Shown here piece by piece: positions 3,132-18,835 of a stretch of 64,000 nucleotides of DNA. The notes under the pieces are model-generated. The model was not told the DNA's origin. It searched no databases and saw only the letters and a list, made by a program, of their open reading frames with translations. Numbering within the stretch: position 1 is the stretch's first letter; every line of letters starts with the position of its first letter. Source of the stretch: a virus (Duplodnaviria; Caudoviricetes); IMG/VR virus record IMGVR_UViG_3300031853_000019, positions 18,749 to 82,748 of that record, one strand, 5' to 3'. A program made the translations under genes and the position numbers.

Positions 3132-3145
3132 TTTTACTCTCCTTT

Positions 3146-4444: not shown

Positions 4445-4447
4445 TGA

Positions 4448-4474: not shown

Positions 4475-4598
4475 TGCGGGGTAGCTAGATTAAGGGGTAG
4501 GTGAATCGGCTTTCGCGCATTTTTGTTTAATTTATAAGGGGGTATTTTTATATTTTATAGGGGGTATTAAAAATCCACAAAAAGGAGGTGGAATTTAA

Positions 4599-5393: not shown

Positions 5394-6130
5394 CCAATAT
5401 ATAAATCTTATTATTGTTCAAGACGGTTGCTTAATTTCCACAGATTTGCTTGATTTTGCAGAGGTGAATTCCACATTTGGGGAATTTCGACAAATTGATG
5501 CAGATATTGGAGATTAATTAGAATTGAGAGTGAATTGGGAGAAATTGGAGATGGGTGGTGACCCGACCTACCACCCTCAACACCTTCTCAACACGGTATA
5601 ACGTCCGTTATCGTCTTCCATAATTCCTCAACTTGAAATTTTAGAAAATTTTTTATATAATATATATATGATAAGTGATTAACAGTTATTGCTTATTATT
5701 TATACTCCAATTCGATGTATTACGATACATAGTTTTGTTTGTCCTTAAAACTAAAAAAAGTAAATTGACCTTTCTTTAGCCTCAGGTAATACACACCTGA
5801 GGTTTTCTTTTTATGTCCGTACCCCGTTGTCCCCTCCGAAGGAGGGGGCAACTTTTTGATTAAAGAGGGTTTCAAGTATAAATATTATCCCATTATATTA
5901 TATAATAATATATTATAAAAATCAAATAACCATTTATGGGAACCATATTATATGCCCGTGCAGGCGGGAATCGCTTGCAAACAACTGGCGGCCAGATCCA
6001 TATTCCATAGGGCGGGCGGTAGCCGCCCGTTCCAAATAACCAGTGCATATAGCCATATAGGTCGGCCTACGGCCTCCCGAGAGGTGAAGAGCGCACTTTA
6101 TTGCGTTAAAGTGTAACACTTTAATGTGTG
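5369..6130. other. Hairpin-rich non-coding region (candidate origin or terminus)
   Basis: Inverted repeats at 5369-5441, 5554-5577, 5779-5806, 5826-5852, 6012-6030 and palindrome TTAAAGTG-TAA-CACTTTAA near 6105-6123, interleaved with AT-rich runs; no ORF with an RBS. Confidence 0.5.
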
Positions 6131-6324
6131 ATTCGGCAAAATTACTGAAAAAATGAAAGATTTTCATAGAATTTTTGTGAAAAATGCTGAAAATTGTTAC
6201 AAAAATGTTAAAAAAGTATTAAATTTGTGCAATTTGTTGAAGTTTTGCGGAATTTTGGGAAAAATAAAGTGTATTTTTGTATATATTTTTTGAAAAAATT
6301 TTGTGTCAAGGGGTTGACTTTTTG

Positions 6325-6401
6325 AAAATTCGGCGCAGTACGCTCAGGAGCGCGCCGCCAAACAGATATAGCAAAAAAGGACATGGCTTTCTACCATGTC
6401 C
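6325..6401 (+). ncRNA. Degenerate hairpin-sRNA cassette (no intact promoter)
   Basis: AATTCGGCGC..GCGCCG hairpin, A tract and terminator hairpin as in the other cassettes, but no TATAAT. Confidence 0.4.
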
Positions 6402-6437
6402 TATCACTGTGGGTATCTATTCAGTTTTGGGGGAGGA

Positions 6438-6812
6438 CTACTCGTCCTCACCCTCGGTCTCCGCATCTGCGGAAACCTCACCATAGAGCATCTTGCCCTT
6501 TACCTTAGCCTTAGCAACACCCATCTGCTTGAGGAGTGCGCTTGCTCTCTGGCAAGATACATCTACCGCATTACCAATCTCGGTAGCAGTTGCGGAACCC
6601 TGTGCATCAAGGAACTCCGCAATACGAACCTTGATTTCGTCATTCTCAATCTGACGCTTAGAGGGTTTATCGCTCTTAGCATACTTCTTATCAAGCTGGG
6701 CAATCATTCTCTCTGCTACCGCAATCTCGTCTGCGGTAAAAACATCTGCCATACCTACTACCTTAGCAAGTACATCTCTCTTAGTTACACCAGTAATTCT
6801 AGCCATAGTCAT
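6438..6812 (-). CDS. Winged-helix DNA-binding protein, paralog 1
   Basis: IAEFLDAQGSATATEIGNAVDVSCQRASALLKQM wHTH; clear similarity to 12442-12804. Confidence 0.75.
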   Translation of the reverse strand: MTMARITGVTKRDVLAKVVGMADVFTADEIAVAERMIAQLDKKYAKSDKPSKRQIENDEIKVRIAEFLDAQGSATATEIGNAVDVSCQRASALLKQMGVAKAKVKGKMLYGEVSADAETEGEDE

Positions 6813-6889
6813 CTACCTCTTTCTTTCTTTTGTGATGTTTTCTGTTTACATTAGTTATTATAACAAATTTTTAAGTGTTTGTCAAGCAC

Positions 6890-7025
6890 TTTTTTTTATT
6901 TATATTAGAGGGCGGTTTCTAGGCGACTCGTGGTGCCGTATCTAGTCTAGGGCAAGTACACAGAAACCTTCCACGCAAGTATGTGTTTTAACTGCTCACC
7001 GCTTCCTTTAATATCTTTACCTTAC
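6890..7025 (-). ncRNA. Orphan ncRNA candidate
   Basis: Consensus promoter (7061-7033) followed by about 130 nt with no ORF, relatively GC-rich, pairings GGTTTCT/AGAAACC and GCGGT/ACCGC. Confidence 0.4.
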
Positions 7026-7047
7026 ATAAGTAATTATATCAGATTTT

Positions 7048-7197
7048 TTAGTAATTGTCAAGAAGTTTTTTTAATTCTTTTTTATTTTTTTGGCGGGTAG
7101 GATGTTTTGCATCCTTGTGTACCCTTGTTCCTGTATTCATATTATACCATACTCTCTTGCTCTTGTCAAGAAGTTTTTTCTTATTTTTTTCAACCAT
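7048..7197 (-). CDS. Small basic protein (49 aa, MVEKNKKKLLDKSKRVWYNMNTGTRVHKD..)
   Basis: Own promoter (7262-7234) and GAAAGGAAA RBS; not in ORF track (<60 aa). Confidence 0.6.
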   Translation of the reverse strand: MVEKNKKKLLDKSKRVWYNMNTGTRVHKDAKHPTRQKNKKELKKLLDNY

Positions 7198-7321
7198 TTT
7201 TGTTTTCCTTTCTTTCCCTTACCTTGTAAATACATTATAACAAAAATTTTTATGGTTTGCAACTTGGAATATTGCACAAATTATGGGAATAAAATTTGTG
7301 CAATATTTTTCCATTTTTCTC

Positions 7322-7431
7322 TTGACAAAAATCCCAGCGTGTGTTATAATGGAATTTCACGCGGTTTGCAGCTTTAGCGTCCGCAAACCGCGCGCCCAAT
7401 AAAAAAGAACGGCTCTTTTCCTGAGCCGTTC
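7322..7431 (+). ncRNA. Hairpin-sRNA cassette 1
   Basis: TTGACA-N17-TATAAT; stem CGCGGTTTGC/GCAAACCGCG, loop AGCTTTAGCGTCC; terminator 7407-7431. Confidence 0.7.
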
Positions 7432-7444
7432 AGATGGTGACCGC

Positions 7445-7822
7445 CTAGGCTTTAGGCGGTCTGTGTTTGGTGAGTTTCATGGTGTACTCGCTACCCTTGT
7501 AAGTGAAGGCGACCTCGGTTTCGGTCTTAATTGCCTTGACCTCTGCGCCCTTATTTTCAAGAAGTTCGGCAACCGCCTTGAGTAAGTAGCCTTTGATTTC
7601 ATCCACCTTGCGCTCCCTTGTACTAGGTTTGCGCTTGCGGTCTGACTTCTCGTATCGTCTTTCGGACTTAATGGAGTTGACCGCCTTTTCAGTTTCCTCA
7701 CTAGGCTTGATTTTACCGCTTTCCTCAAGAATCAAGTCGCAAGCCTCTGTGATACTACACTCTAAACTTTCAACATACTTGTCAATGAGGGCATCATCAA
7801 CATCAAAACCCTTATACTGCAT
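7445..7822 (-). CDS. Phage hypothetical protein (basic linker, alpha/beta C-terminal domain)
   Basis: Start MQYKG at 7822 after GAGGTG; own promoter. Confidence 0.75.
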   Translation of the reverse strand: MQYKGFDVDDALIDKYVESLECSITEACDLILEESGKIKPSEETEKAVNSIKSERRYEKSDRKRKPSTRERKVDEIKGYLLKAVAELLENKGAEVKAIKTETEVAFTYKGSEYTMKLTKHRPPKA

Positions 7823-7914
7823 TTGCAACACCTCTTTCTTTATTTGATACACTAATTATAGCATACCTTTAGGGGATTGTCAATAGGTATTTTTGATTTT
7901 TTGCACTCTACCCT

Positions 7915-8607
7915 TTAAGAGTAGAGTGCTTTCCGCATTTTCTTATGCTTTGCCATACAATATGCAAAAATTGCGGTTTCAATAATTACATCCTCAAGTC
8001 CTGTATGACTTTCAATAAAATCGGGGTTTTGTGTAATATAGCGGTAAACAGTTTCCGCTTTTACTTGCGGTCTAGGTGTCTTATGGGCGGTTACAAAACC
8101 ATTCTCAAAACAAAACCGCTTGTATGTGGGAGTTTTTGCAACTACATCTTGTACCATTTTCATAGAATCCCAAACAATAGTGCCATAAGGTAAAAACCAT
8201 CTGTATTTGCTTTTGGTTTCCCATCTTTGTGTTACATTGAGTGCGGTATCGTCAAACCTTGCATTATAGGCGATAACAATATTTGTATTGTACTTTTTCA
8301 TTACATCCGCTAATGTCTTGCGGATTTCATAAAGGCTTGCGACTTTTCTCTTTCCGTTTTTAATATCCTTATAATACTGCGGTAACTTATCCGCATAATA
8401 TGAAGATTTCATAAGGGATTTCTCACCGAAGAAAATTCCTCTATTTACAAAGGAATATTCCTCATATATAGTGCCATGCTTATCACAAACCGCAAATCCG
8501 CAATCATATACAAACATATTATTTGCGGAAACACCCTCAAAGTCCTTGTCTATGGGACACGTTTCGGTGTCTAACACTACATAATACTTTCTTCTCTTGT
8601 CAACCAT
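7915..8607 (-). CDS. DEDDh (DnaQ-family) 3'-5' exonuclease
   Basis: Exo I VLDTET, Exo II AYNARFD, Exo III HTGLEDV. Confidence 0.9.
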   Translation of the reverse strand: MVDKRRKYYVVLDTETCPIDKDFEGVSANNMFVYDCGFAVCDKHGTIYEEYSFVNRGIFFGEKSLMKSSYYADKLPQYYKDIKNGKRKVASLYEIRKTLADVMKKYNTNIVIAYNARFDDTALNVTQRWETKSKYRWFLPYGTIVWDSMKMVQDVVAKTPTYKRFCFENGFVTAHKTPRPQVKAETVYRYITQNPDFIESHTGLEDVIIETAIFAYCMAKHKKMRKALYS

Positions 8608-8842
8608 TTTCTTTTGTCCTCACTTTCTCCACCTACCTAGGTGGTTCGCTTTTTTATTTTGTAACTTAATTATACTACTTTCAGTTGAGATTGTCAAGCA
8701 TTTTTTTGAATTTTTTTATTTTTGTTTTGGCTTGCTTTCTTCATCTGACATTATTAATTATAACAGATTGGCGGGAAATTGCAATAGATAAAATGTACAA
8801 ATTGCGGGAAATAAATTTGTGCAACTTTTTTTGAAAAATCAC

Positions 8843-8944
8843 TTGACAAAACCTGCGGCAGGTGGTATAATGGAAATTCGCCCAGTTTTCGGATAAGGCA
8901 CTCGAAAACTGGGCGATAAAAAAGCACCCCATTTGGGGTGCTTT
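8843..8944 (+). ncRNA. Hairpin-sRNA cassette 2
   Basis: TTGACA-N17-TATAAT; stem TCGCCCAGTTTTCG/CGAAAACTGGGCGA, loop GATAAGGCACT; terminator 8924-8941. Confidence 0.7.
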
Positions 8945-8947
8945 GTT

Positions 8948-9115
8948 TTAGATAGCTTCTGCTCTATAAGTAGTAAACCATCCTTCATTTGCTTCTACTT
9001 GCATAGCCCATGAAAAGGCTTTATCTTCTGCTTCTCGTAAAGTTTTAGCTTTTATTGTTCTTTTATACTCTGGGTTACCAAGATCATCACAAACATAAAT
9101 ATTGTATAAATTCAT
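8948..9115 (-). CDS. Small hypothetical protein (55 aa, MNLYNIYVCDD..)
   Basis: AAGGAG RBS; in operon; not in ORF track. Confidence 0.7.
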   Translation of the reverse strand: MNLYNIYVCDDLGNPEYKRTIKAKTLREAEDKAFSWAMQVEANEGWFTTYRAEAI

Positions 9116-9128
9116 ATTAATCGCTCCT

Positions 9129-9299
9129 TTACTGTTCTTTATCTTCTTTGTTTTCTATCATTATTCTTGCAAGGTTAATTCCGAATAATACACCCTCTTG
9201 GAAGTCACTAAGTTCAATTTGGTTATCTTCAGTAAAAATTTTTCTTTCTTCTTCGCCTGCACGCTTTAAAAACTTTACAATCTGTTTTCTTTTTGCCAT
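9129..9299 (-). CDS. Small hypothetical protein (56 aa, MAKRKQIVKF..)
   Basis: AAGGAGTG RBS; not in ORF track. Confidence 0.7.
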   Translation of the reverse strand: MAKRKQIVKFLKRAGEEERKIFTEDNQIELSDFQEGVLFGINLARIMIENKEDKEQ

Positions 9300-9333
9300 A
9301 TTATTTCACTCCTTTTTTCTATGCACTTCCTGC

Positions 9334-9792
9334 CTATACGGGAAGTGCTATCTTTTCAAGTTCTGCGATTATGTCCATATTGGCATCAATCGTGTGTCCA
9401 AGTTTCCAACCCTTGCGGATTTTCTCGTTATCATCTACTAAAATCTGATAACCGCCATTTTTTCTTGTGCAGTTTGCTTTTGTAGTTCCATACTTTACAA
9501 GGTGAATCTCGTCATACGGAAAGTCATATTTTGCAAGCCAATCAAGTTTTGCTTTTCTTATGCGGTCGTTATATTCCTTGCTACCGCTTTTTGCTAACCA
9601 TGTTGTGATTGCAACTTTCCAACCTTGCGCCCTAAGGACTTTCAAAATTGCATTGAGGATGTCCATATCATACAAAGGTTTTGCTTTCTCATAAGGTGTG
9701 GTGTCGCTTGCCTGAAGATATTCAAGCCATCCCTCTACACCATAGAAGTCTGCGATTGTGCCATCCATGTCGAATACTAAAGTTTTGTTCAT
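9334..9792 (-). CDS. HAD-superfamily phosphatase, 5'(3')-deoxyribonucleotidase-like
   Basis: Motif I FDMDGTIADF, motif II ITTW, motif IV LVDDN. Confidence 0.85.
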   Translation of the reverse strand: MNKTLVFDMDGTIADFYGVEGWLEYLQASDTTPYEKAKPLYDMDILNAILKVLRAQGWKVAITTWLAKSGSKEYNDRIRKAKLDWLAKYDFPYDEIHLVKYGTTKANCTRKNGGYQILVDDNEKIRKGWKLGHTIDANMDIIAELEKIALPV

Positions 9793-9936
9793 AGGCTTTT
9801 GCTCCTTTCCTTTTCTGTAACTTAATTATAGCAAATTTATAGCAAGTAGTCAACCTCTAAATGCGGTTTCGTCACTTTGCACAAAAGTGATCTAGTTTTG
9901 GGATAATATTTTGTGCAAAATTTTTTAAAAAATCAC

Positions 9937-10038
9937 TTGACAAAAGTTGATAGGTATGGTATAATGAAATTTCGCCATGCAAACGGATAGTGCGCTCGTT
10001 TGCATGGCGTCAAAAAAGCACCCCATTTTGGGGTGCTT
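9937..10038 (+). ncRNA. Hairpin-sRNA cassette 3
   Basis: TTGACA-N17-TATAAT; stem CGCCATGCAAACG/CGTTTGCATGGCG, loop GATAGTGCGCT; terminator follows. Confidence 0.7.
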
Positions 10039-10044
10039 GGTTAA

Positions 10045-10503
10045 TTAGTTGTCGCAATAGGCTCTAAGTTCATTTAATTCATTGATGACGTCTATTACAT
10101 CATAACCCTCTGAGGTTATTGCAGTATTATGGTCAAGAGCCTGAAAGTTTCTTAATGCGTTAAGAGCATCATCTAAATATCTAAGCATACGGTCTTTCTT
10201 TTTATCCATTAAGGCTTCATTGGCTTTATTAATAAGCATTTCAAGGTCATCATCTGTCATGTTATCAAAGTTATAAAGGTCTTTCTGCTTAGGCATTTCT
10301 GTTTCTTCACTCCTCTCTAAAATAAGTTCTAACTCATTTTCAGCAAACCAATATACATAATCATTTATTGTAACTTCATAGGGCAAATCTTTATCAAATT
10401 TATCCCAATCAGTAATTATGCCAATAGTACCAGCAGGTAAAGGATGGAAATAACGATTATTTGCTATAACTGTTTTTACCTTGTCACCAACTTTAAATTT
10501 CAT
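10045..10503 (-). CDS. Hypothetical protein with N-terminal SH3-like barrel (MKFKVGDKVK)
   Basis: Start reassigned to 10503 after GAGGTAG RBS and own promoter. Confidence 0.75.
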   Translation of the reverse strand: MKFKVGDKVKTVIANNRYFHPLPAGTIGIITDWDKFDKDLPYEVTINDYVYWFAENELELILERSEETEMPKQKDLYNFDNMTDDDLEMLINKANEALMDKKKDRMLRYLDDALNALRNFQALDHNTAITSEGYDVIDVINELNELRAYCDN

Positions 10504-10559
10504 ATTATCTACCTCGCTTTCTTTTGATGTATTTATTATATCATGCAATGGGTTACTTG

Positions 10560-10733
10560 TCAACCTTCTATTTTATCTTTATTTGCCTCATACCAACTTT
10601 TATACATAGCAACCACACTTCCTGGATAGTATCGCTTACAAGCAGTATAAAAAACTGTCGACCAACAATGTGTATGGTTCATTAGCCAAACGATTAGCTT
10701 ATTAAAAATTGTTTCTTTTATCTCGTGAAGCAT
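10560..10733 (-). CDS. Small hypothetical protein (57 aa, MLHEIKETIF..)
   Basis: GGGGTG RBS; stop overlaps the -35 of the next promoter. Confidence 0.6.
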   Translation of the reverse strand: MLHEIKETIFNKLIVWLMNHTHCWSTVFYTACKRYYPGSVVAMYKSWYEANKDKIEG

Positions 10734-10745
10734 TTTTTACACCCC

Positions 10746-10976
10746 CTAAATCAACTTAATAACAATCAATCCGATTGTAATTGCCGCAAAACAAGTGTTC
10801 TTAATCTTGTCTGCAATAGGTCTGCCTAACTTGAAATCTCTAATCAAATTGATAGTGTTACCAATCAGATATGCGCCTTGACCGATAAAAAATGCCCAAC
10901 CTACTGTTACCTGACCTACCAACAGTAATCCTAAAATTACATAACCCATGTTATCCCAAAACTTTGTCTTTTCCAT
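10746..10976 (-). CDS. Small multi-pass membrane protein
   Basis: 76 aa with two to three hydrophobic segments; own promoter. Confidence 0.75.
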   Translation of the reverse strand: MEKTKFWDNMGYVILGLLLVGQVTVGWAFFIGQGAYLIGNTINLIRDFKLGRPIADKIKNTCFAAITIGLIVIKLI

Positions 10977-11097
10977 TTTTGTTTACCTTTGCACTCGCCG
11001 TGCTCCTTTCTTTATGTTGTACTTATTATAGCATGGCGGAAAGCACTTGTCAACACTTTTTAGGAAAATAAATAAAAAAATATTTTTAAAAAAACGC

Positions 11098-11201
11098 TTG
11101 ACAAAAATCCTGGGATGTAGTATAATAGTGATTTTGGGCGGGTTGCGAAATGAAGTGGCCGCAACCCGCCCATCGAAAAGAGAAGAGCCTTTCGGCTCTT
11201 C
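11098..11201 (+). ncRNA. Hairpin-sRNA cassette 4
   Basis: TTGACA-N17-TATAAT; stem TGGGCGGGTTGCG/CGCAACCCGCCCA, loop AAATGAAGTGGC; terminator 11182-11201. Confidence 0.7.
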
Positions 11202-11206
11202 TGTAA

Positions 11207-11428
11207 CTACTCGACTTCTTCTCTAATAGACTTGAAGAAATCTTCTACAATATCAGTGATTTTATTTGAGGTTTGTGAGTCAACCATAGCGAATTTTAAA
11301 AGAAAATCGTAGGTTCCATAAACTTGTGAAAGTTCTCTTAAAATATTATCTTTTTTTTCGTTAACATATTCTTCAAATTCAAGAACCATTTCTTCCATAA
11401 CAATCATCTCTTTATCATCCATTTTCAT
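11207..11428 (-). CDS. Small acidic protein
   Basis: 73 aa, GAGGTAG RBS, D/E-rich. Confidence 0.7.
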   Translation of the reverse strand: MKMDDKEMIVMEEMVLEFEEYVNEKKDNILRELSQVYGTYDFLLKFAMVDSQTSNKITDIVEDFFKSIREEVE

Positions 11429-11441
11429 CTACCTCTCTTTC

Positions 11442-11606
11442 TTAATAAGTGTCCCAACCAAGCATTTCCGCCTCTTCTTCGGTAACTGTACCAAAGCACT
11501 TAGGCTCATCAAAATACTGCTTTGCAATCTCGATTGCTTCTTCTTTAGTGTTTGCTTCTACTAAGAAATCCTCTCCTGTTACTCTGTCATTAAATTCGTA
11601 GGTCAT
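11442..11606 (-). CDS. Small acidic protein (MTYEFNDRV.., 54 aa)
   Basis: Start reassigned to 11606 after GAGGTAG; own promoter. Confidence 0.7.
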   Translation of the reverse strand: MTYEFNDRVTGEDFLVEANTKEEAIEIAKQYFDEPKCFGTVTEEEAEMLGWDTY

Positions 11607-11646
11607 GTTTACTACCTCTCTTTCATTTGATGTATTTATTATAACA

Positions 11647-11904
11647 TCAATCTTCACTTTTGTCAATAGGTTTTTCCCAATTTACCCAATTTTTTAATGC
11701 GTATTCTGTAAGTTCTTTTGCATGAAATGGAAATGTCAATTTGCTTGCACATTCCAAAAGCCACTGAAAAACTTGATACTCTTTTTCAATGAAATCAACT
11801 GTTTTAAAGTCGTTCATGTGGAAAACTGAATCGGGATGCTTAGTGCTTGCCGCCCATAATTCACATACATAATCATTCTCATCATTCTTATAAACTTTAA
11901 TCAT
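11647..11904 (-). CDS. Hypothetical protein
   Basis: 85 aa, GAGGTA RBS. Confidence 0.7.
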   Translation of the reverse strand: MIKVYKNDENDYVCELWAASTKHPDSVFHMNDFKTVDFIEKEYQVFQWLLECASKLTFPFHAKELTEYALKNWVNWEKPIDKSED

Positions 11905-11993
11905 TTTGTTTTACCTCTCTTTCTTTTGCTACCAACCATGATGGGAGAAAGCGGAATTAGTATTACTGTTATTAGTGTAATGATATCGTACAT
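11901..11993 (-). CDS. 30-aa membrane peptide (MYDIITLITVILIPLSPIMVGSKRKRGKTK)
   Basis: Own promoter, AAAGGGGG RBS, TGA overlaps next ATG. Confidence 0.55.
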   Translation of the reverse strand: MYDIITLITVILIPLSPIMVGSKRKRGKTK

Positions 11994-12149
11994 CTGCGAC
12001 AACCCCCTTTCTCTTTATCTGTTGTACTTATTATAGCAAAAAATGGCGGGAATGTCAAGCGAAAATTGCTTCACAAAAGGGTTTAATTAGTTTGAGATTT
12101 AGTAGGTTTTAATGGGATCCGATAAGAAACACATTTCTTTAAAAAATCG

Positions 12150-12255
12150 TTGACAAAATGTTGGAAGTGTAGTATAATGTTAAATTCGGCTCAGATGCAG
12201 CTTTAGCGCCCGCATCTGAGCCGTCCAAAAGGAAAGGCACTCCAAATGGAGTGCC
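12150..12255 (+). ncRNA. Hairpin-sRNA cassette 5
   Basis: TTGACA-N17-TATAAT; stem CGGCTCAGATGC/GCATCTGAGCCG, loop AGCTTTAGCGCCC; terminator 12236-12255. Confidence 0.7.
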
Positions 12256-12286
12256 TAGGAAAGGAGGTTAAACATATCTGTATGAG

Positions 12287-12386
12287 TGGAGGAGGTGGGA
12301 GTCGAACCCACGAACCAGACGGTTTGCGTGTCTGCGCTATTGCCTTTCAGCTTCGGCGGCGAAGGTACCCTTTCGCTTACACCCCC
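12287..12386 (-). ncRNA. Atypical tRNA-like RNA (100 nt) with G3-U70 and A73
   Basis: 5' GGGGGTG pairs with CTCCTCC-A; canonical T arm GTGGG-TTCGACT-CCCAC; CAGAC/GTCTG arm; expanded D region; no encoded CCA. Confidence 0.65.
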
Positions 12387-12441
12387 AAATTTTTAAGCCT
12401 GACCCCCTAGCCCCATGACTAGGGGGAGGAACTTTTTAAGA

Positions 12442-12804
12442 CTACTCTGCGTCCTCGAAAGGATTTACAGAGAACTGAGCCTTATTCTTGCCCTTTGCAG
12501 GCTTGTTGAAGATTTCGCCATTGGCTACCATCACCTTCATTCTAGCGGAAACCTTCTGAACACTGAGGTCAGTTGCCTTTGCAATCTCGGTTGCGGTTGC
12601 AACCTTACCATCTGCAAGGAACTCTGCGATAGTATCCATCTCGGCTCTGCGCTCTGCTTCTACCTTCTCGGATACTCCACCCTTAGAGTTTCTCTTATCA
12701 AGCTGAGCAATCATCTTCTCGATAACTGCCTTCTCACCCTCGGTGAAATCCATCTCAAGTGCCTTTGTAAGAACTTCCTTCTTAGTAATCTCTACCTTTG
12801 CCAT
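12442..12804 (-). CDS. Winged-helix DNA-binding protein, paralog 2
   Basis: IAEFLADGKVATATEIAKATDLSVQKVSARMKVM; shares TKK/REVL and EKMIAQLDK with 6438-6812. Confidence 0.75.
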   Translation of the reverse strand: MAKVEITKKEVLTKALEMDFTEGEKAVIEKMIAQLDKRNSKGGVSEKVEAERRAEMDTIAEFLADGKVATATEIAKATDLSVQKVSARMKVMVANGEIFNKPAKGKNKAQFSVNPFEDAE

Positions 12805-12884
12805 AATTATCTACCTCTTTCTTTCTTTATTTTGTAAGTTTATTATATCAGATTTTTTCTTGTTTGTCAAGAAGTTTTTTTATT

Positions 12885-13045
12885 TTTTTGATGTCCTAGT
12901 GGGAACTTGGCTAGACATCCCGTGGTCGATTTCATTGGCGCCCCATGTGGTTCCCGACCTATTAGCGCCCCTCACACGAGGTATTCCTATCGGGTTTATT
13001 TAGTTTGGCGGTGCTCTCATGCGTGTCACATCCTTTCCTTATCTT
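12885..13045 (-). ncRNA. Structured ncRNA candidate with tiny upstream ORF (MRAPPN)
   Basis: Consensus promoter 13082-13054; GC-rich, no ORF longer than 9 aa after the RBS; two GGGGCGCYAAT repeats; 3' hairpin GATGTC..GACATC. Confidence 0.5.
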
Positions 13046-13281
13046 ATGTACTTATTATAGCACATCTTTTTAAGTTTGTCAACAAGTTTTTTTAATTTTT
13101 TTAAGATTGTCTGCCTAGTGTTTTCTCATTTCGCGCGACAGTAGGAGTTTGCACTTAGTCTTTTAAGACGCTCTTTCCTTACCTTGTAAACTAATTATAG
13201 CAAAATTTTTTGTATTTTGCAAGTAGTAATGTTGCACAAAATATTGGGATCAAAATTGTACAGTTTTTTAACAGAAAATGC

Positions 13282-13385
13282 TTGACAAAAAACCTGGAGC
13301 TGTGGTATAATGGAATTTCGACGCTCGCACGGGTAAGGCATCCGTGCTCGCGGCGTCAAAAAAGAAGGTGCTCCCGCACCTTCTT
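13282..13385 (+). ncRNA. Hairpin-sRNA cassette 6
   Basis: TTGACA-N18-TATAAT; interrupted stem GACGC..GCACGG/CCGTGC..GCGTC, loop GTAAGGCAT; terminator 13364-13383. Confidence 0.65.
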
Positions 13386-13550
13386 GCTTATTTTTCAAGT
13401 ATTAGTCCTCTACTATTTCTTTCTCTGTAATTTTAACAGGTCTGCACCCATCAAAATCTTCATCGCTCATAAACTTCTGAAGTGCTTCTTTTATGTCGTT
13501 AGCCGTAAATCCTACGGTGCCTACAAAATCAATCTCATAAATCGTCATTT

Positions 13551-13745
13551 TTAATCCTCACTTTCTTCTTTATCTGCCTTTATAAGTTTAGGATAGATGC
13601 CGTGAACACCTGACCAAAAAATCGTCCATAATTGTTTATTTCTTTTTTTCCTAATTTTAAGGTCTAGACAATCATCTTCTTTCAGAAGTTCGATTGCTCT
13701 TTCTTTTGCTTGTTTATAAGTTTTGTAAACTTCTTCGTATTCCAT
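13551..13745 (-). CDS. Small hypothetical protein
   Basis: 64 aa, own promoter and AAAGGAG RBS. Confidence 0.7.
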   Translation of the reverse strand: MEYEEVYKTYKQAKERAIELLKEDDCLDLKIRKKRNKQLWTIFWSGVHGIYPKLIKADKEESED

Positions 13746-13793
13746 TCTCTTGCTCCTTTCCTTTACTGTAACTACATTATAACAAATTTGATT

Positions 13794-13955
13794 TTATCTG
13801 TCAAGCATTTTTTCACATCTTTCAAAATTTTTACAGTGTTGACATGAATGAACCTTGTGCTTTCTTTTAAGACATATGCTTTCGCCTACATCATTCATGG
13901 GTTTGTAGTTATTATAACCAAAGTATTTACAATTTGAGCAAATCTTCTTCTCCAT
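13794..13955 (-). CDS. Small Cys-rich (zinc-binding) protein (MEKKICSNCKY..)
   Basis: CxxC, C, HxCxxC pattern; start reassigned to 13955. Confidence 0.7.
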   Translation of the reverse strand: MEKKICSNCKYFGYNNYKPMNDVGESICLKRKHKVHSCQHCKNFERCEKMLDR

Positions 13956-14058
13956 TCTCTTGCTCCCTTCCTTTACTGTAAATAAATTATAGCACAAGTA
14001 TGATTAAAAGTCAAGCATTTTAGGAAAAATAATTTAAAAAATTTTTTCAATTTTTCTC

Positions 14059-14160
14059 TTGACAAAAGTTGACGAAGGTGGTATAATGGTTAATTCGGCC
14101 GGCTTGCAGACTTGGCGCCCGCAAGCCGGCCGAGAAAAAGAGAGAGTGCAAAGCACTCCC
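14059..14160 (+). ncRNA. Hairpin-sRNA cassette 7
   Basis: TTGACA-N17-TATAAT; stem TCGGCCGGCTTGC/GCAAGCCGGCCGA, loop AGACTTGGCGCCC; terminator to 14160. Confidence 0.7.
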
Positions 14161-14173
14161 TGTCAATTGCTAC

Positions 14174-14409
14174 TTAAATTACAAGGGTTACATTTAATGG
14201 AAATACTACATCGAAGGAATTGAAATAGTATCTTTTTCCATTCTCTAAACTGATTGTATTTGCATCATCACAATTCTCTGTTTCCTCAAGTTTTATAAAA
14301 ATTCTATCAGTCGTCATATCTCTCTTTCTGACTTATCTGAAAAAACTGCCCCAGGTTTAAGATCTGCAAAATAATACTGCTTGTTATAATTGCCAATATC
14401 AATTTTCAT
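14174..14409 (-). CDS. Two overlapping mini-ORFs (14314-14409, 31 aa; 14174-14317, 47 aa), possibly one split gene
   Basis: MKIDIGNYNKQYYFADLKPGAVF.. and MTTDRIFIKLEE..NTISLENGKRYYF.. overlap at ATATGA. Confidence 0.5.
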
Positions 14410-14439
14410 TTTATCTACCTCTTTTTTTAGGGTGCGTGC

Positions 14440-14601
14440 TTATGCACGCTCCCTCAACTTCTCTCTCAACTTTGCTACCCTTTCCGCATTATAGCGGGCA
14501 TGGTCGCTAGAACTTTCAATCAACTTTGCAACCGCATTAGCAGGTGCTTCCGCCTTTGTCTTGTAAGTTACTCCATTTGCTTCGTAAACTAAATCTCTCA
14601 T
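14440..14601 (-). CDS. Small hypothetical protein (53 aa, MRDLVYEANG..)
   Basis: Own promoter, GAGGTA RBS. Confidence 0.7.
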   Translation of the reverse strand: MRDLVYEANGVTYKTKAEAPANAVAKLIESSSDHARYNAERVAKLREKLRERA

Positions 14602-14687
14602 AGTGTTTACCTCTCTTTCTTTTTACTATAATCATTATAGCATTTTCTTTTCCTTTTGTCAACACTTTTTTATCTTTTGTTAGACCC

Positions 14688-14783
14688 CTACTCAAAGGGG
14701 TCTAACTTCGCCCAATACAGGGCTTCGGCGGGGGATAAACCCTCTCGCCTATACACGCGGAACCAATCGTAAAGTGTCATCAT
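14688..14783 (-). CDS. 31-aa peptide (MMTLYDWFRVYRREGLSPAEALYWAKLDPFE)
   Basis: Own promoter, AAAGGAGG RBS. Confidence 0.65.
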   Translation of the reverse strand: MMTLYDWFRVYRREGLSPAEALYWAKLDPFE

Positions 14784-14889
14784 AGTGTTGTCCTCCTTTA
14801 TCCTTTCGATGTACTTATTATAACATCCATCTGGTTGTTTGTCAAGCAATTTTGGGAAATTTATTAAAAAAATTTTTTAAAATTTTTCC

Positions 14890-14995
14890 TTGACAAAATA
14901 GACCGTGATGTGGTATAATAGTGAATTCGCTGCGGTTGCGAAATAAGTGCACGCAACCGCAGCGTCAAAAAAAGAAGGTGCTCCTGCACCTTCTT
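14890..14995 (+). ncRNA. Hairpin-sRNA cassette 8
   Basis: TTGACA-N18-TATAAT; stem CGCTGCGGTTGCG/CGCAACCGCAGCG, loop AAATAAGTGCA; terminator follows. Confidence 0.7.
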
Positions 14996-14997
14996 AA

Positions 14998-15204
14998 TTA
15001 GTATTCAAAGATAACTTCATCATTTTCAGAATGAACTGCGTAAACCTCTTCAACTTCACCCGCTCCCGCTTTTAGAATATCTCGAACATTATCTTCTAAC
15101 TCATCAGCAAGTTCTTCGGTGAAAGTTTCCCAAGGGATTAAAGCCTTATACTTATCATCTACTTCAATTTCTTTTGTGGCTCCATAATACACTTTTACTT
15201 TCAT
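14998..15204 (-). CDS. Small acidic protein, paralog of 16107-16316
   Basis: MKVKVY..EIEVDDK shared N-terminus. Confidence 0.75.
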   Translation of the reverse strand: MKVKVYYGATKEIEVDDKYKALIPWETFTEELADELEDNVRDILKAGAGEVEEVYAVHSENDEVIFEY

Positions 15205-15206
15205 TT

Positions 15207-15488
15207 TTAGTCCTCACTTTCATGAATCGCTTTGTATCGGCTTCCAATCTCTCCATCTAATGCGGTTAAGATATCTGAAAGACTGAAGCAAAAACAGTCG
15301 CCTGCAAAAGATGAATACATTTCTACATTAATAGTATCTCTTTCTTCTGGAGTAGTAGTACACTCTAAGTTATCGCAAATCCCTTCAAGAATTTTAATCT
15401 CTCTTCTTTTCTCTCTGTTATCAAGAGCCTTTTGAATTTCTTTAAGGGCTTTCTTTAAATCCTCTGTTGAATAATCATCGTATGACAT
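15207..15488 (-). CDS. Hypothetical protein (MSYDDYSTEDLKKAL..)
   Basis: Start reassigned to 15488 after AAAGGAG. Confidence 0.7.
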   Translation of the reverse strand: MSYDDYSTEDLKKALKEIQKALDNREKRREIKILEGICDNLECTTTPEERDTINVEMYSSFAGDCFCFSLSDILTALDGEIGSRYKAIHESED

Positions 15489-15502
15489 TTTAATTCTCCT
15501 TT

Positions 15503-15724
15503 CTACTCTCCAAAAATCTTTTCTTGACAAGAGGGGCAGAACCCAGTAATCAAGAATTCTCTAGTTACTATGGGTACATTAGGCATAGCCTTTTGAATAA
15601 GGGCGCCCTCATCTGCCCACTTGGTAAACCCCTCGGTATCAACAGAAACCTGATTGTATTGTCCACAAAGTGGGCATCTTTCTTTTACTACCGTACTAAG
15701 TTCATCTTGATAAATTATTACCAT
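15503..15724 (-). CDS. Zinc-ribbon protein
   Basis: CPLCG and CPSCQ motifs; own promoter. Confidence 0.75.
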   Translation of the reverse strand: MVIIYQDELSTVVKERCPLCGQYNQVSVDTEGFTKWADEGALIQKAMPNVPIVTREFLITGFCPSCQEKIFGE

Positions 15725-15789
15725 AATGTTTACCGCCTTTCTTTATCTTGATACTATTGTATCATAGGGTATGCTTTTTGTCAAGCATT

Positions 15790-15930
15790 ATTCTCGTTTT
15801 CTCTAGGGAAGTTGCCGTTCGGCAGTTGGCTATTTTCTAATTCCCGCCTGTCCTCTAAACAAGAACTGTACTTTTCACCATCTGTTGCGAACTATCTCTT
15901 TGAAGGGGCTTCACTTCCCGTATCTCCCTT
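15790..15930 (-). ncRNA. Orphan ncRNA candidate
   Basis: TTGCAA-N17-TATATT promoter; long-range GGGAAGT/ACTTCCC pairing and TGCCG-AA-CGGCA hairpin; only a 19-codon GTG ORF. Confidence 0.35.
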
Positions 15931-16028
15931 CTGTGATTATAATATATCACATTCTAAAGCGGGTTGCAATAGACAAGTTGCACAAAATTACGGGAATGGG
16001 TTTGTACAAAATTTATATTAAAAAGTGC

Positions 16029-16101
16029 TTGACAAATGTTGCGGCTCATGGTATAATGGATTTTTGGCGCGGCTCGATGACCTGCGGCCGGAGCCGCGCC
16101 A
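16029..16101 (+). ncRNA. Hairpin-sRNA cassette 9 (no separate terminator)
   Basis: TTGACA-N17-TATAAT; stem TGGCGCGGCTC/GAGCCGCGCCA, loop GATGACCTGCGGCCG. Confidence 0.65.
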
Positions 16102-16106
16102 CCGAC

Positions 16107-16316
16107 CTAATCTTCATAAAGAGGATATTCGGTTGCCATGTCCTCTACGTAGACAATGTTTGAGTAGGCCGTGTTCAGTTCGTTTGCAATAGTATCCATT
16201 AGCTCCTTTGAGAGAGGTATGTAGGTGTTAATGTCTGTATCTGGCTTTGTTAAGTCGGTAAACTTGTCGTCTACTTCCATTTCTGTGATGATGTTGTGAT
16301 AGACTTTGATTTTCAT
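16107..16316 (-). CDS. Small acidic protein, paralog of 14998-15204
   Basis: MKIKVY..EMEVDDK; start after GAGGTG. Confidence 0.75.
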   Translation of the reverse strand: MKIKVYHNIITEMEVDDKFTDLTKPDTDINTYIPLSKELMDTIANELNTAYSNIVYVEDMATEYPLYED

Positions 16317-16327
16317 GGCAGCCACCT

Positions 16328-16426
16328 CTACTTCCTTTTATCTCTTGTTTCTACATAGTCGCAAATCAATGCGGCAAGTCCAAAGAATAAACAGATAATT
16401 CCCATGTTTACAAAATATGCGCTCAT
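16328..16426 (-). CDS. 32-aa membrane peptide (MSAYFVNMGIICLFFGLAALICDYVE..)
   Basis: Own promoter, GAGGTA RBS, single hydrophobic helix. Confidence 0.6.
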   Translation of the reverse strand: MSAYFVNMGIICLFFGLAALICDYVETRDKRK

Positions 16427-16475
16427 TTAGTTTACCTCTCTTTCATTTACTATAATTATTATAACAAATTTGTTT

Positions 16476-16631
16476 TTATTTGTCAATAAGTTTTTTTATT
16501 TCTTGTTCAAGGATCTGCGGGAAAGCGCCCTCATTCTTTCGTGGGGTTGTCGGTCTAGGTGAAGTTGACCAGCTTTCCCGCTTGTCCTTATATATAGGAA
16601 AGGCTTTTGTAATTCTATAAATCTTTTGCAT
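16476..16631 (-). CDS. Possible 51-aa protein (MQKIYRITKA..) overlapping a long hairpin
   Basis: GAGGAG RBS; contains the GCGGGAAAGC/GCTTTCCCGC inverted repeat. Confidence 0.4.
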   Translation of the reverse strand: MQKIYRITKAFPIYKDKRESWSTSPRPTTPRKNEGAFPQILEQEIKKLIDK

Positions 16632-16636
16632 GTAAC

Positions 16637-16828
16637 CTACTCCTCATCTTCTTCGAAGTAGGCTACTAATGCAACACCAGGGACTTTATATACTTCCCAC
16701 CAACCGCCATATGCCTCAACTGAAGCTATATGGTCATCGGTGATGGGGCATATATCACTTGCCTCAACCTCAACAACATCTGCGGTTACCATTGTTCCAT
16801 CCTCTAAAAACCAAGTAAGTGTTCTCAT
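16637..16828 (-). CDS. Small acidic protein
   Basis: 63 aa, strongly acidic, own promoter. Confidence 0.75.
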   Translation of the reverse strand: MRTLTWFLEDGTMVTADVVEVEASDICPITDDHIASVEAYGGWWEVYKVPGVALVAYFEEDEE

Positions 16829-16886
16829 ATGTATTACCTCTCTTCCTCTTTTGATATACTTATTATATCATGGAGGGTTGATTTTG

Positions 16887-17006
16887 TCAACCCTCAATTT
16901 CAATTTTTTTCAAGTTTCCGTATCTTTTCTGAAAATTGATAACCTCAACTCCATTAAGTTTTCCGTTTGTCCAAACGATGTTTCTTTCAAATGTGTACTT
17001 ATACAT
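16887..17006 (-). CDS. 39-aa protein (MYKYTFERNIVW..)
   Basis: Own promoter and hairpin leader with AAAGGT RBS. Confidence 0.65.
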   Translation of the reverse strand: MYKYTFERNIVWTNGKLNGVEVINFQKRYGNLKKIEIEG

Positions 17007-17091
17007 AACCTTTTACCTTTCAACCTTGCGGTTGTCCTTTCCTTACCTTGTAAACCAATTATAACATCATCAATTCTGTTTGTCAATAGAG

Positions 17092-17133
17092 TTATCAACA
17101 AGTTTTCCACAAAATTCAAAAAAGTTATCAACA
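17092..17133 (+). promoter_or_regulatory. DnaA-box triplet 1
   Basis: TTATCAACA 17092, TTTTCCACA 17103, TTATCAACA 17125; each one mismatch from TTATCCACA. Confidence 0.65.
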
Positions 17134-17199
17134 TTTTCTTTTGTGCAAAGTGATGAATTTTCAGGATCAAATTTGTGCAAAATAACAACGAAAAACTGC

Positions 17200-17312
17200 T
17201 TGACAAATGTCGCTGGCTATGATATAATGGAATGGCGTCGCGCCAACAATTTCATAGGCCGTTGGCGCGACGCCAAACAAAAAACAAAAAAGGAAGTGCT
17301 CACCGCACTCCC
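17200..17312 (+). ncRNA. Hairpin-sRNA cassette 10
   Basis: TTGACA-N17-TATAAT; 15-bp stem TGGCGTCGCGCCAAC/GTTGGCGCGACGCCA, loop AATTTCATAGGCC. Confidence 0.7.
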
Positions 17313-17413
17313 TTAATCTCAACTGTGAAGCCTGCTTTTTCAAGTTCCTTTACATTAACCTCATCGAGTCTTACTTCGCCTACTATGATTCCATTTACTC
17401 TTACTAATGCCAT
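17300..17413 (-). CDS. 37-aa protein (MALVRVNGIIVGEV..)
   Basis: Own promoter, AAGGAGGT RBS. Confidence 0.65.
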   Translation of the reverse strand: MALVRVNGIIVGEVRLDEVNVKELEKAGFTVEIKGVR

Positions 17414-17496
17414 TTTGTTTACCTTCCTTTTCCTTTTGATATGGTTATTATATCATGTTTAATTAGGTTTGTCAACTGTTTTTTATTTGGTGGCTA

Positions 17497-17610
17497 CTAG
17501 CAGTAGTAGCCACCAATCATAGCAACAAGGTACTGTGCTTCTTCCTCTGTGCTACACTCTGTTACAGGGATCCCCTGCTCATTGAATACTGTCCAAAGTC
17601 CTTCTACCAT
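17497..17610 (-). CDS. 37-aa acidic protein (MVEGLWTVFNEQG..)
   Basis: Own promoter, hairpin leader. Confidence 0.65.
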   Translation of the reverse strand: MVEGLWTVFNEQGIPVTECSTEEEAQYLVAMIGGYYC

Positions 17611-17694
17611 AATCTTTTACCTTTCACCGATCCGGTGTCCTTTCCTTTACTGTAACTAAAGTATATCACACACCGCCCACCTTGTCAACAGAAG

Positions 17695-17726
17695 TTATCA
17701 ACAAGTTTTCCACAAAGTTATCAACA
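17695..17726 (+). promoter_or_regulatory. DnaA-box triplet 2
   Basis: TTATCAACA 17695, TTTTCCACA 17706, TTATCAACA 17718. Confidence 0.65.
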
Positions 17727-17792
17727 AGATCCTTTGGTAGAATTGCACAAAATTCGGGATCTAGGTTTGTGCAAAATTTTTGAAAAAAACAC

Positions 17793-17915
17793 TTGACAAA
17801 TTTCGCCCACTATGTTATAATGGAATCCCGACGCGCAAACGATTTCATAGGCCGTTTGCGCGTCGCCAATTCGCATATGCAATAAAAATAATAGGGTAGG
17901 CGTTCCCGCCTACCC
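17793..17915 (+). ncRNA. Hairpin-sRNA cassette 11
   Basis: TTGACA-N17-TATAAT; stem CGACGCGCAAACG/CGTTTGCGCGTCG, loop ATTTCATAGGC; terminator GGGTAGGCG..CGCCTACCC. Confidence 0.7.
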
Positions 17916-17924
17916 TTATATGCT

Positions 17925-18116
17925 CTATGCAAGTGATACAGCCGAGAGCTTTTCATTGATGGCTCCCCAATCCTCGCTTCTCGCTGTGACCTCTACCTTA
18001 TAGCAGTTCATTTCGATGATTTCCTTGCTAACGAAGGCGGGAAACTCATTGATAACCGCACTCAGCACTCCGCTATTTACTGCGCTATTGCTCATATAGT
18101 ATGTCTTACTCTTCAT
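17925..18116 (-). CDS. Small hypothetical protein
   Basis: MKSKTYYMSN.., AAAGGTG RBS. Confidence 0.7.
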   Translation of the reverse strand: MKSKTYYMSNSAVNSGVLSAVINEFPAFVSKEIIEMNCYKVEVTARSEDWGAINEKLSAVSLA

Positions 18117-18148
18117 AACATTCACCTTTCCTTTCTCTATGTGTACTA

Positions 18149-18247
18149 CTACTCCATCATGGAGTAGTAGTAAGCCTGCTCTGCAAGCGCCTCTTCTGCA
18201 TATGCCTCAAGTTCCTCGTCTGTCATTTCCTCGAACCAATTTTCCAT
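18149..18247 (-). CDS. 32-aa highly acidic peptide (MENWFEEMTDEELEAYAEEALAEQAYYYSMME)
   Basis: Own promoter and hairpin leader; no basic residues. Confidence 0.65.
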   Translation of the reverse strand: MENWFEEMTDEELEAYAEEALAEQAYYYSMME

Positions 18248-18321
18248 GTTTTTCACCTTTCAAGCCTTTGGCTTGCCTTTCCTTTACTGTATCTTTATTA
18301 TAGCATGGGTTGACTATTTTG

Positions 18322-18750
18322 TCAACCCCATTTTTCAATTTCTTCTTTTGCGGTTTTAATTGCTTTGTTACATTTAGCAATTTCATCATTCAGTTCATTG
18401 ATCTTTGCTTGTCTTGTTTCTTCCTTCTTATATTTTCTTACTTTGATTTTTTCAATCTCTTCTTTACAAGCCTTGATTTCATTGTTAAGTCTTTCAATGA
18501 AATTCATGTTAAAATCATAGTCACCTTTTGTGTAGACTCTTTCCTTTTCTCCTTCTCCAATGATAACGCGGTTATCTTCATCTACATAGTAGATATTCTC
18601 ACAAATCTCGCTATCACGAGCGCCCTGGTCTAAAAGAAACTTCTTTGCGCTTTCCTTAGTAGCAAAAGTCTTTGTTGTGTATCCACCATGGTCGCAAGTT
18701 ACAAATCTGTCATAATATGTTGCATCAAATACTCTCATCATTTCTTTCAT
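18322..18750 (-). CDS. Hypothetical protein with C-terminal coiled coil
   Basis: 142 aa; own promoter and hairpin leader. Confidence 0.75.
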   Translation of the reverse strand: MKEMMRVFDATYYDRFVTCDHGGYTTKTFATKESAKKFLLDQGARDSEICENIYYVDEDNRVIIGEGEKERVYTKGDYDFNMNFIERLNNEIKACKEEIEKIKVRKYKKEETRQAKINELNDEIAKCNKAIKTAKEEIEKWG

Positions 18751-18835
18751 GTTCGTTTACCTTTAGTCCTTGTGGACTTCCTTTCCTTTACTGTAACTAA
18801 AGTATATCATACTCCATCCGGTCTGTCAATAAAAG

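Follow-up and report, generated by a model that had tools for sequence, protein, structure and literature searches.

A candidate non-decoding tRNA mimic of tRNA-Ala descent in a hypervariable slot of a rumen phage

Some RNAs have the shape of a transfer RNA (tRNA) and do not decode. The stable RNAs 'species 1 and 2' from the tRNA region of phage T4, and mascRNA, a 3' element of tRNA-like form cut by RNase P, are non-decoding molecules that the tRNA processing enzymes mature out of a longer transcript. To our knowledge their functions are largely unknown, and no allelic series running from tRNAs to stubs has been described for them. Mycobacteriophage DS6A carries a transfer-messenger RNA (tmRNA) that consists of the tRNA-like domain (TLD) only, and a molecule of this type is reported to be a strong inhibitor of tmRNA, possibly because it titrates SmpB (PMC4131195). 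The pseudo-tRNA 'tRNA-Other' of Bacillus cereus is described as tRNA-shaped, not working in translation and affecting cell physiology (PMC3399842), and the tRNAs of lytic phages have been proposed to evade tRNA-targeting host defences, answering tRNA-cutting nucleases (PMC10264068). Here we describe a tRNA-like RNA element on the minus strand of a 64,000-nt stretch of viral DNA, called the window below, which corresponds to positions 18749-82748 of the 82.7-kb IMG/VR virus record IMGVR_UViG_3300031853_000019 (estimated to be 61% complete). With moderate confidence, a little better than even, we read the element as a non-decoding tRNA mimic derived from tRNA-Ala, one allele of a hypervariable slot found in a clade of large rumen siphophages, whose acceptor/T-arm half (the top half) is under selection.

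Structure and descent of the element

The element consists of an acceptor stem, three inner hairpins (HP1 to HP3) and a T arm, an arrangement that we call a five-way junction; the positions of its parts are given in Table 1. Six of the seven acceptor pairs of GGGGGTG / CTCCTCC are formed (G1-C72, G2-C71, G3-U70, G4-C69, G5-C68 and G7-C66), U6-U67 is a mismatch, the stem is followed by A73, and the T stem is perfect. The complete alanine acceptor set (G3-U70, A73, G1-C72, G2-C71 and G4-C69) was read directly in the sequence and, since CTC comes after A73, CCA is not encoded. The original prediction had placed a non-canonical tRNA-like RNA at exactly this position and had claimed the alanine set for it on the strength of G3-U70 and A73; the letters, acceptor stem, T arm and hairpins were all as described, and the arm it had drawn as AGAC(A)-CGCAAAC-(C)GTCT reads HP3 in another, equally valid way. 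The unconstrained minimum free energy (MFE) fold reproduces the three inner hairpins. The D-like region keeps T8 and A9 and has a 5-bp HP1 stem with GGG and A in its loop, along with an extra A10, and two of the loop Gs are paired in the MFE fold. The arm at the anticodon position has G33 and a 9-nt loop, and is preceded by an inserted 16-nt hairpin and 7-nt linker. A frame of seven codons, AAEAERQ-stop, runs through HP2, so the earlier statement that no tag reading frame exists was not literally correct; the frame was nevertheless rejected as a tmRNA tag, being short and inside a hairpin, with no pseudoknot and no tmRNA call by ARAGORN, and in this sense the statement stands. Complements of the HP2 and HP3 loops, sought in the window as possible loop targets, occurred at chance frequency only.

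Standard finders passed over the element. ARAGORN with default settings returned no tRNA or tmRNA gene in the 64-kb window, and Rfam called no family there at gathering score. With E-value thresholds, the best Rfam family was tmRNA (RF00023), which aligned end-to-end at 22 bits (E = 1e-7, gathering score 47), with confidence only in the acceptor stem and T arm and with 11 model positions after the acceptor deleted; this was the best match within the tRNA clan, any match to the tRNA model RF00005 (cut-off 29) being lower. When introns were allowed at an 80% threshold, ARAGORN gave 'Ala(ggc) with intron' for the element and 'Phe(gaa) with intron' for its close copy L105. These calls contradict each other between copies that are 96% identical and were therefore treated as artefacts, and no tmRNA was called at the element at relaxed thresholds. 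A blastn search (words of 11) of positions 12200-12460 against GenBank phages gave no match. For the T-loop word GGTTCRANTCC, 0.07 occurrences are expected in the 64 kb and one is present; together with the end-to-end tmRNA-model alignment and the recurrence in independent assemblies described below, this indicates that the element is more than a chance arrangement.

The top half of the element closely resembles that of the phage tRNA-Ala(UGC) genes on three unrelated viral contigs from IMG/VR (L003, L008 and L029). The nine bases at the 5' end are the same, U6 included (GGGGGTGTA is identical), and 23-24 of the 25 bases at the 3' end are shared, the T arm and the CCTCCTCCA end being near-identical, although 21 of these 25 had been fixed by the search pattern. 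Because the 5' word matches although it was absent from that pattern, the top half is of tRNA-Ala descent, and since U6-U67 is common to the phage tRNA-Ala lineage, the mismatch is a lineage feature and not damage. Both kinds of RNA have U6-U67, G3-U70 and A73 and leave CCA unencoded. Below the top half they differ: the tRNA-Ala(UGC) genes, 71-77 nt long, are normal in their D arm and carry TGC in an anticodon arm, whereas in the element three hairpins (66 nt), none of them offering a usable anticodon, take the place of the region between positions 9 and 49.

By established rules, alanyl-tRNA synthetase (AlaRS) recognises its substrates through G3-U70 of the acceptor helix, so that even minihelices are charged. 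The full alanine acceptor is also present in two sequence-unrelated alleles from related phages (see below), L103 (GGGGCTA...TAGCTCC-A) and L089 (GGGGCGA...TCGCTCC-A), and because AlaRS needs the acceptor helix alone, all three bodies would stay chargeable irrespective of the parts below it. An apparent enrichment of G3-U70 among the alleles was dropped as an argument, since A3-U70 is also common (L080, L104 and L145) and the numbers are small; the remaining alleles have G3-C70. More weight is carried by the complete GGGG...CTCCA alanine acceptor, which is present in three alleles.

The slot in related phages

Small genes on the minus strand make up the early region around the element, which lies where a gene for a MarR-like winged helix-turn-helix (wHTH) protein has its 3' end; since no promoter lies between this gene and the element, the latter is a passenger in the 3' untranslated region of the wHTH transcript. 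For its protein, 26 homologues were found (43-98% identity), and relatives of the locus were taken from the contigs encoding 12 of them and from an IMG/VR scan for a T loop followed by CCTCCTTTCC; a related-locus search of IMG/VR for relatives of the wHTH protein found none. The same order, namely stop codon, GC hairpin, about 16 nt, a tRNA-shaped element, about 20 nt, CCTCCTTTCC and terminator, was observed in every relative examined. The arms of the GC hairpin between stop codon and element covary in the relatives (e.g. L089, L094, L080 and L081), and CCTCCTTTCC stands about 20 nt after every slot allele, just before the terminator (L075, L078-L081, L089, L091, L092, L094, L103-L106 and L142-L148).

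What occupies this slot varies widely (Table 1). The canonical alleles are Lys-UUU/CUU and Ile-GAU tRNAs and, since these positional homologues are ordinary tRNAs, the element is a remodelled occupant of a tRNA slot. Besides the window allele there are at least six non-canonical slot RNAs (79-126 nt), two of them with the full alanine acceptor, and the smallest occupants consist of acceptor stem and T arm alone. A paired acceptor stem and T arm are kept in every allele: at least 11 different acceptor stems were found, each with 6-7 of 7 positions paired, and the T stems were paired at 5 of 5. The odd alleles recur beside different wHTH variants. Since a tRNA-Ile stands beside a wHTH protein 98% identical to that of the window, while the window allele recurs beside one that is 75% identical, a specific partnership between protein and RNA is not supported. 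One 138-kb ENA contig (L078/L080) carries two wHTH paralogues 2.2 kb apart, each with its own slot, one holding a 46-nt stub and the other a 93-nt five-way element with its own consensus promoter.

The recurrent copy of the window allele beside the 75%-identical wHTH protein is L105, which is 96% identical to it. The two differ at four places, all unpaired, and no stem position is changed; the HP3 loop has 9 nt in the window (ACGCAAACC) and 7 nt in L105 (CGCAAAT), and one linker base before the T stem differs. In a third copy, the 3' half alone on a contig from a bovine DNA run (X2), the HP3 loop has lost one nucleotide (8-nt loop) and U67 is replaced by A; provided that U6 is conserved in the 5' half, which is missing from this contig, the two would form a pair. 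Exact-pattern scans of IMG/VR and of JGI metagenome contigs found the window allele in its own record alone; the other copies came from ENA and Logan assemblies, reached via the wHTH protein, and from the bovine run. In another DNA run 108 other letters stand in place of exactly positions 12287-12423, up to and including the last base of the element; this is a cassette swap.

When acceptor stem and T arm are constrained, a five-way junction is the fold of the window element, L105, L080, L103 and L104 alike. A covariance model of the window element and L105 scored L080 at 37.4 bits and L104 at 35.7 bits, whereas none of the ordinary tRNAs in the 344 kb of retrieved loci exceeded 30.7 bits. The alignment with L080 keeps HP1, HP2 and the acceptor and T stems through compensatory changes, while HP3 is present and unaligned. 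In a model-fitted alignment of eight elements, 93% of the cells pair, against 72% in shuffles and 45-56% when slid, and 19 of the 25 pairs show changes on both sides. The L080 allele, moreover, has its own TTGACA-17-TATAAT promoter directly upstream, suggesting that such RNAs are wanted as products.

Alternative explanations and proposed role

Instead of a selected mimic, the element may be a relic, that is, a tRNA-Ala gene decaying in a redundant slot, of which either the acceptor/T-arm half serves as an RNase P / RNase Z signal or nothing is kept, and whose inner hairpins and alanine marks have no function of their own. We consider this unlikely, though a possibility to be taken seriously, as several observations speak for it and against selection on a functional RNA. 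The slot alleles show a gradation, with canonical tRNAs (70 bits) at one end and stubs of 43-46 nt at the other, and the closest phage, with a flanking gene that is 98% identical, has a normal tRNA-Ile in the slot. The 19-gene tRNA array of the phage supplies Lys-UUU, Ile-GAU, Leu-UAA and Leu-UAG, that is, the specificities found in the slot elsewhere, and this duplication fits relaxed selection and decay. The HP3 loop drifts in length (9, 8 and 7 nt), and the fold energy of the element is no better than that of shuffles (z = -0.17); an ordinary folding energy compared with shuffles is common for tRNAs. Among the three copies of the window allele, one of them a 3' half alone, there is no true covariation, and the identity to L105 could reflect recent cassette transfer and not constraint. 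The eight-element alignment, being fitted to the model, leans towards structure and gives moderate support. Alanine charging, too, is not a common requirement of the slot, since alanine identity is absent in L080 and in most alleles. Decay, however, should mostly shorten a gene, while the non-canonical alleles, at 79-126 nt, are longer than tRNAs and have well-formed extra GC hairpins; each odd allele type was found in several phage backgrounds; stem positions are identical among the copies of the window type (the U67 to A change of the third copy lies at the mismatch); and a consensus promoter of its own precedes the L080 allele, which is similar in architecture. The original prediction had named ordinary tRNA homologues, from which this copy had simply decayed, as grounds for giving it up. 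The positional homologues are indeed tRNA-Ile(GAU) and tRNA-Lys, but the element is not simply rotting, since it recurs behind a diverged gene with changes at unpaired positions only and shares its five-helix layout with the separately promoted L080 allele.

Three further explanations assign the element to a known kind of molecule or sequence. It may be a message-less mini-tmRNA as in DS6A, which would bind SmpB (and AlaRS and EF-Tu) and block or divert the host's ribosome rescue. In favour of this, the element has G3-U70, A73 and a T arm, tmRNA is the best Rfam family end-to-end for the element as for L105 and L103, and the TLD-only tmRNA of DS6A, inhibitory to tmRNA, is a precedent (PMC4131195). 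Its 22 bits, however, lie far below the gathering score, whereas eight of ten short tag-less tmRNA-like genes (described below) reach 41-63 bits; the 5' D-loop word GGNTTCGA is missing, with TAAGCGAAAGGG after the acceptor stem instead; no helix (P2) joins the 5' and 3' sides by the T arm, and three local hairpins fill the place of SmpB; the top half matches phage tRNA-Ala genes, U6-U67 included; and neither a tmRNA call by ARAGORN, even relaxed, nor an SmpB gene on the record (61% complete) was obtained. We regard this explanation as quite improbable, and the earlier claim that the element is too short for a tmRNA can be extended, as it is also differently built. That it is an odd decoder, either an alanine-charged tRNA that uses the anticodon CAA to read UUG or a tRNA whose loop is enlarged for frameshifting or suppression, is highly improbable. 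In L105, HP3 does match an anticodon arm exactly in size: its stem has 5 bp, and its 7-nt loop, CGCAAAT, has a pyrimidine at position 32, CAA at 34-36 and a purine at 37. Against this, G33 replaces the near-universal U33, the loop has 9 nt in the window copy and 8 nt in the third copy, a 16-nt hairpin and a 7-nt linker stand between the D-like arm and HP3, ARAGORN makes no default call and its relaxed calls conflict, Ala(ggc) against Phe(gaa) in L105. The mistranslating tRNA of the original prediction falls with it, given G33, the three loop lengths among the variants and the hairpin between the arms. Finally, the element's 3' 23 bases resemble the ends of tRNAs or tmRNAs, which are common integration sites, so that it might be an attachment site copied from the 3' end of a host tRNA-Ala or tmRNA. 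This is barely credible: the element includes a complete 5' acceptor strand, many unrelated full-length tRNAs occupy the same slot in sister phages, the 23-mer had no exact match in 185,579 species genomes, and no tyrosine or serine recombinase was found on the 82.7-kb record (61% complete).

Returning to the mimic of tRNA-Ala descent, we think it very probable that the element is a real, processed RNA. Judging from the layout, the promoter at 12870 would drive the wHTH gene and the element as one transcript. By established enzymology the acceptor/T-arm half is what RNase P and RNase Z recognise, so the element should be excised: G12386 would be the RNase P site, RNase Z would cleave behind A12287, and the 3' end would be completed by the CCA-adding enzyme. 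These cuts would leave an upstream mRNA ending in the GC hairpin, which may protect that end after RNase P cleavage or may be an attenuator, and would release a trailer with CCUCCUUUCC. The released trailer would be a small RNA made up of an anti-Shine-Dalgarno word and the terminator hairpin; the sequence of CCTCCTTTCC is like that of the 16S rRNA 3' end and complementary to the GGAAAGGAGG ribosome-binding sites of the phage itself. By the identity rules, G1-C72, G2-C71, G3-U70, G4-C69 and A73 would suffice for AlaRS, and charging with alanine is fairly probable if the RNA is processed. Decoding, by contrast, would be impossible for it.

Since the acceptor/T-arm half is kept in every allele, the generic job of the slot would be to present a tRNA top half to the enzymes that read it. 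Selection on the top half alone would explain the stubs, the hairpin-protected mRNA 3' end and the freed trailer, and we put the chances at about even that the element has a role beyond such transcript punctuation. That some alleles are elaborated and recurrent, one of them even with a promoter to itself, suggests that the RNA, once excised, has its own role as a tRNA mimic. For elaborated alleles such as the element, the most likely role is that of a mimic or sink directed at a factor by which tRNA is handled or attacked. In a more speculative extension, to which we give a rather low probability, the slot would be a hotspot swapping non-decoding mimics, several of them chargeable, and the element an alanylated decoy kept by an arms race. 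The targets of such decoys would be tRNA-targeting defence nucleases, AlaRS, EF-Tu or SmpB, and the three alanine-type bodies and the Leu-like long-arm forms would be the ones chargeable without an anticodon.

Phage tRNA genes are usually counted only if called by a finder, and annotation pipelines miss the elaborated slot RNAs. The allelic series at one address is a natural experiment on what a tRNA-shaped RNA offers a phage besides decoding, be it processing signals, charging or mimicry. If the elaborated forms turn out to be charged decoys, they would add an RNA layer to phage counter-defence and an interference with the quality control of host translation; if processing signals only, the slot RNAs document tRNA 'punctuation' of early phage transcripts.

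Phage context and comparison with known systems

Table 1. Positions of the features of the locus, of the slot alleles in related phages and of short tmRNA-like genes
Feature	Position or contig	Strand	Basis or remark
tRNA-like RNA, 100 nt	12386..12287	minus	sequence reading, MFE fold, tmRNA-model alignment
Acceptor stem, 5' strand	12386-12380	minus	
Acceptor stem, 3' strand	12294-12288	minus	
Discriminator A	12287	minus	
HP1, D-arm-like, GGG in loop	12376-12359	minus	GCGAA..TTCGC
HP2	12357-12342	minus	GCC-10 nt-GGC
HP3	12334-12316	minus	CAGAC-9 nt-GTCTG; extendable by AGC/GTT (feature span 12338-12313)
T arm	12311-12295	minus	GTGGG-TTCGACT-CCCAC
Consensus sigma-70-type promoter, TTGACA-17-TATAAT, extended TG	12842..12870	minus	promoter scan, 12/12 matches
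MarR-like winged-helix gene, 120 aa	12442..12804	minus	open reading frame list, Pfam, PHROG
GC-rich hairpin, 10 bp, no U tract	12403..12426	minus	fold; 16 nt upstream of element
CCTCCTTTCC, anti-Shine-Dalgarno-like word in 3' trailer	12258..12267	minus	sole exact minus-strand copy in window
Intrinsic terminator, 9-bp stem, T-rich tail	12235..12256	minus	terminator scan
Slot: canonical tRNA-Ile(GAU)	L106, L147		wHTH 98% identical to that of window; L106, 70.5 bits
Slot: canonical tRNA-Lys	L081, L091, L094		
Slot: Leu-like long-arm tRNAs, defective anticodon arms	L104, L075		52 bits; 49 bits
Slot: weaker forms	L079, L089		35.5 bits; 27 bits
Slot: forms matched by tmRNA model alone	L103, L105, window element		23.7 bits; 22.6 bits; 22 bits
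Slot: L080 allele	L080		no Rfam hit
Slot: long forms outside Rfam scan	L142-144; L145, L146, L148		96 nt; 126 nt
Slot: stubs of acceptor stem and T arm alone, 43-46 nt	L078, L092, first site of L094		
Short tag-less tmRNA-like genes	L112:179-267, L114:1518-1612, L122:1910-1989, L127:735-830, L129:1183-1263		
Short tag-less tmRNA-like genes	L135:1262-1340, L115:822-917, L138:269-346, L073:418-507		L073 by sequence alone, no score

The window belongs to a large siphophage of the Firmicutes type from the cattle rumen, in agreement with the original placement of the element inside phage DNA. Its large terminase is 45% identical to that of Geobacillus virus E3 and 42% identical to that of Enterococcus phage H1-like large siphophages, and DNA of the phage is present in bovine gut metagenomes of many studies. 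The wHTH protein gave weak Pfam matches to HTH_24 and MarR_2 and matched PHROG 1687 (MarR family regulator, E = 5e-7). A contig from an RNA library (one bovine run) covers only positions 12440-12751, in the wHTH gene, and none of the RNA contigs reaches the element; contigs cannot show ends or absence. The array of 19 canonical tRNA genes lies outside the window on the same strand, at 4612-11341 of L141 (record positions 1-18800); it has none for Ala, Asp, Cys, His or Phe, and none of its genes encodes CCA. T-loop words without an ARAGORN call occur in L141 at 3321, 5262, 6433 and 6904, the one at 6433 resembling, on visual inspection, a tRNA-Glu(UUC) whose D arm is odd. Genes for a CCA-adding enzyme and for SmpB were not found on the record, which carries little weight at 61% completeness.

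On the opposite strand, a low-complexity frame of 42 codons runs antisense to the element (12282-12410, plus strand), with its ATG at 12282, 14 nt after GGAAAGGAGG; its start is missing in L078, L079 and L106, and it was treated as probably spurious. A plus-strand consensus promoter at 12150-12225, part of dispersed plus-strand cassettes, fires at the element through a long GC hairpin and the common terminator, and read-through from it would be antisense to the tRNA-like RNA.

A metagenome scan for tmRNA-like genes with the pattern GGGGGTGTAAG...GGGTTCGANTCCC returned many genes of about 75-100 nt. Most of these have GGTTTCGA or a near variant after the acceptor, one helix by the T arm and a CACCTCCACCA end. 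When ten of them were rescored on RF00023, the eight at 41-63 bits included six above the gathering score, and the other two, L110 and L120, reached 32.5 and 29.7 bits; several of the rescored genes adjoin tRNA genes. Most of those listed in Table 1 have GGGGGTGTAAGGTTTCGA or a near variant at the 5' end and an encoded CCA. These genes match the 'TLD only' kind of DS6A (PMC4131195), a tag-less kind that seems far commoner than the single published case. An 81-nt alanine-type RNA, GGGGGTGTAAGTGG...CCTCCTCCA, was also observed nearly unchanged in many viral and metagenome contigs with tRNA genes, after a T-rich terminator (L044:7026-7109, L069, L060, L110, L121, L126, L130, L133, L134 and L137); its 32.5 bits on the tmRNA model lie between the mini-tmRNA genes and the window element.

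No sequence relation links the element to 'species 1 and 2' of T4 or to mascRNA. 'tRNA-Other' of B. cereus (PMC3399842) is chromosomal, flanks a genomic island and has normal cloverleaf size, none of which applies to the element; the two differ in identity, and no hypervariable slot is known for 'tRNA-Other'. The defence-evading tRNAs of lytic phages are working molecules with point changes in the anticodon loop (PMC10264068), whereas the element has no working anticodon arm and, for this reason, could act against tRNA nucleases as a decoy only. The closest likeness in kind is to the TLD-only tmRNA of DS6A and the short tmRNA-like genes, which, like the element, are phage-borne and combine an alanine acceptor and T arm with no anticodon or tag. 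Most of the short tmRNA-like genes, however, encode CCA, while the element has neither CCA nor GGTTTCGA nor the single closing helix, and scores 22 bits. A message-less alanine-type tRNA-like RNA in a phage is already known from DS6A; what sets the present one apart is a five-way body that is derived from a tRNA and not from a tmRNA, and that is one allele of a precisely swapped slot whose occupants range from canonical tRNAs to stubs.

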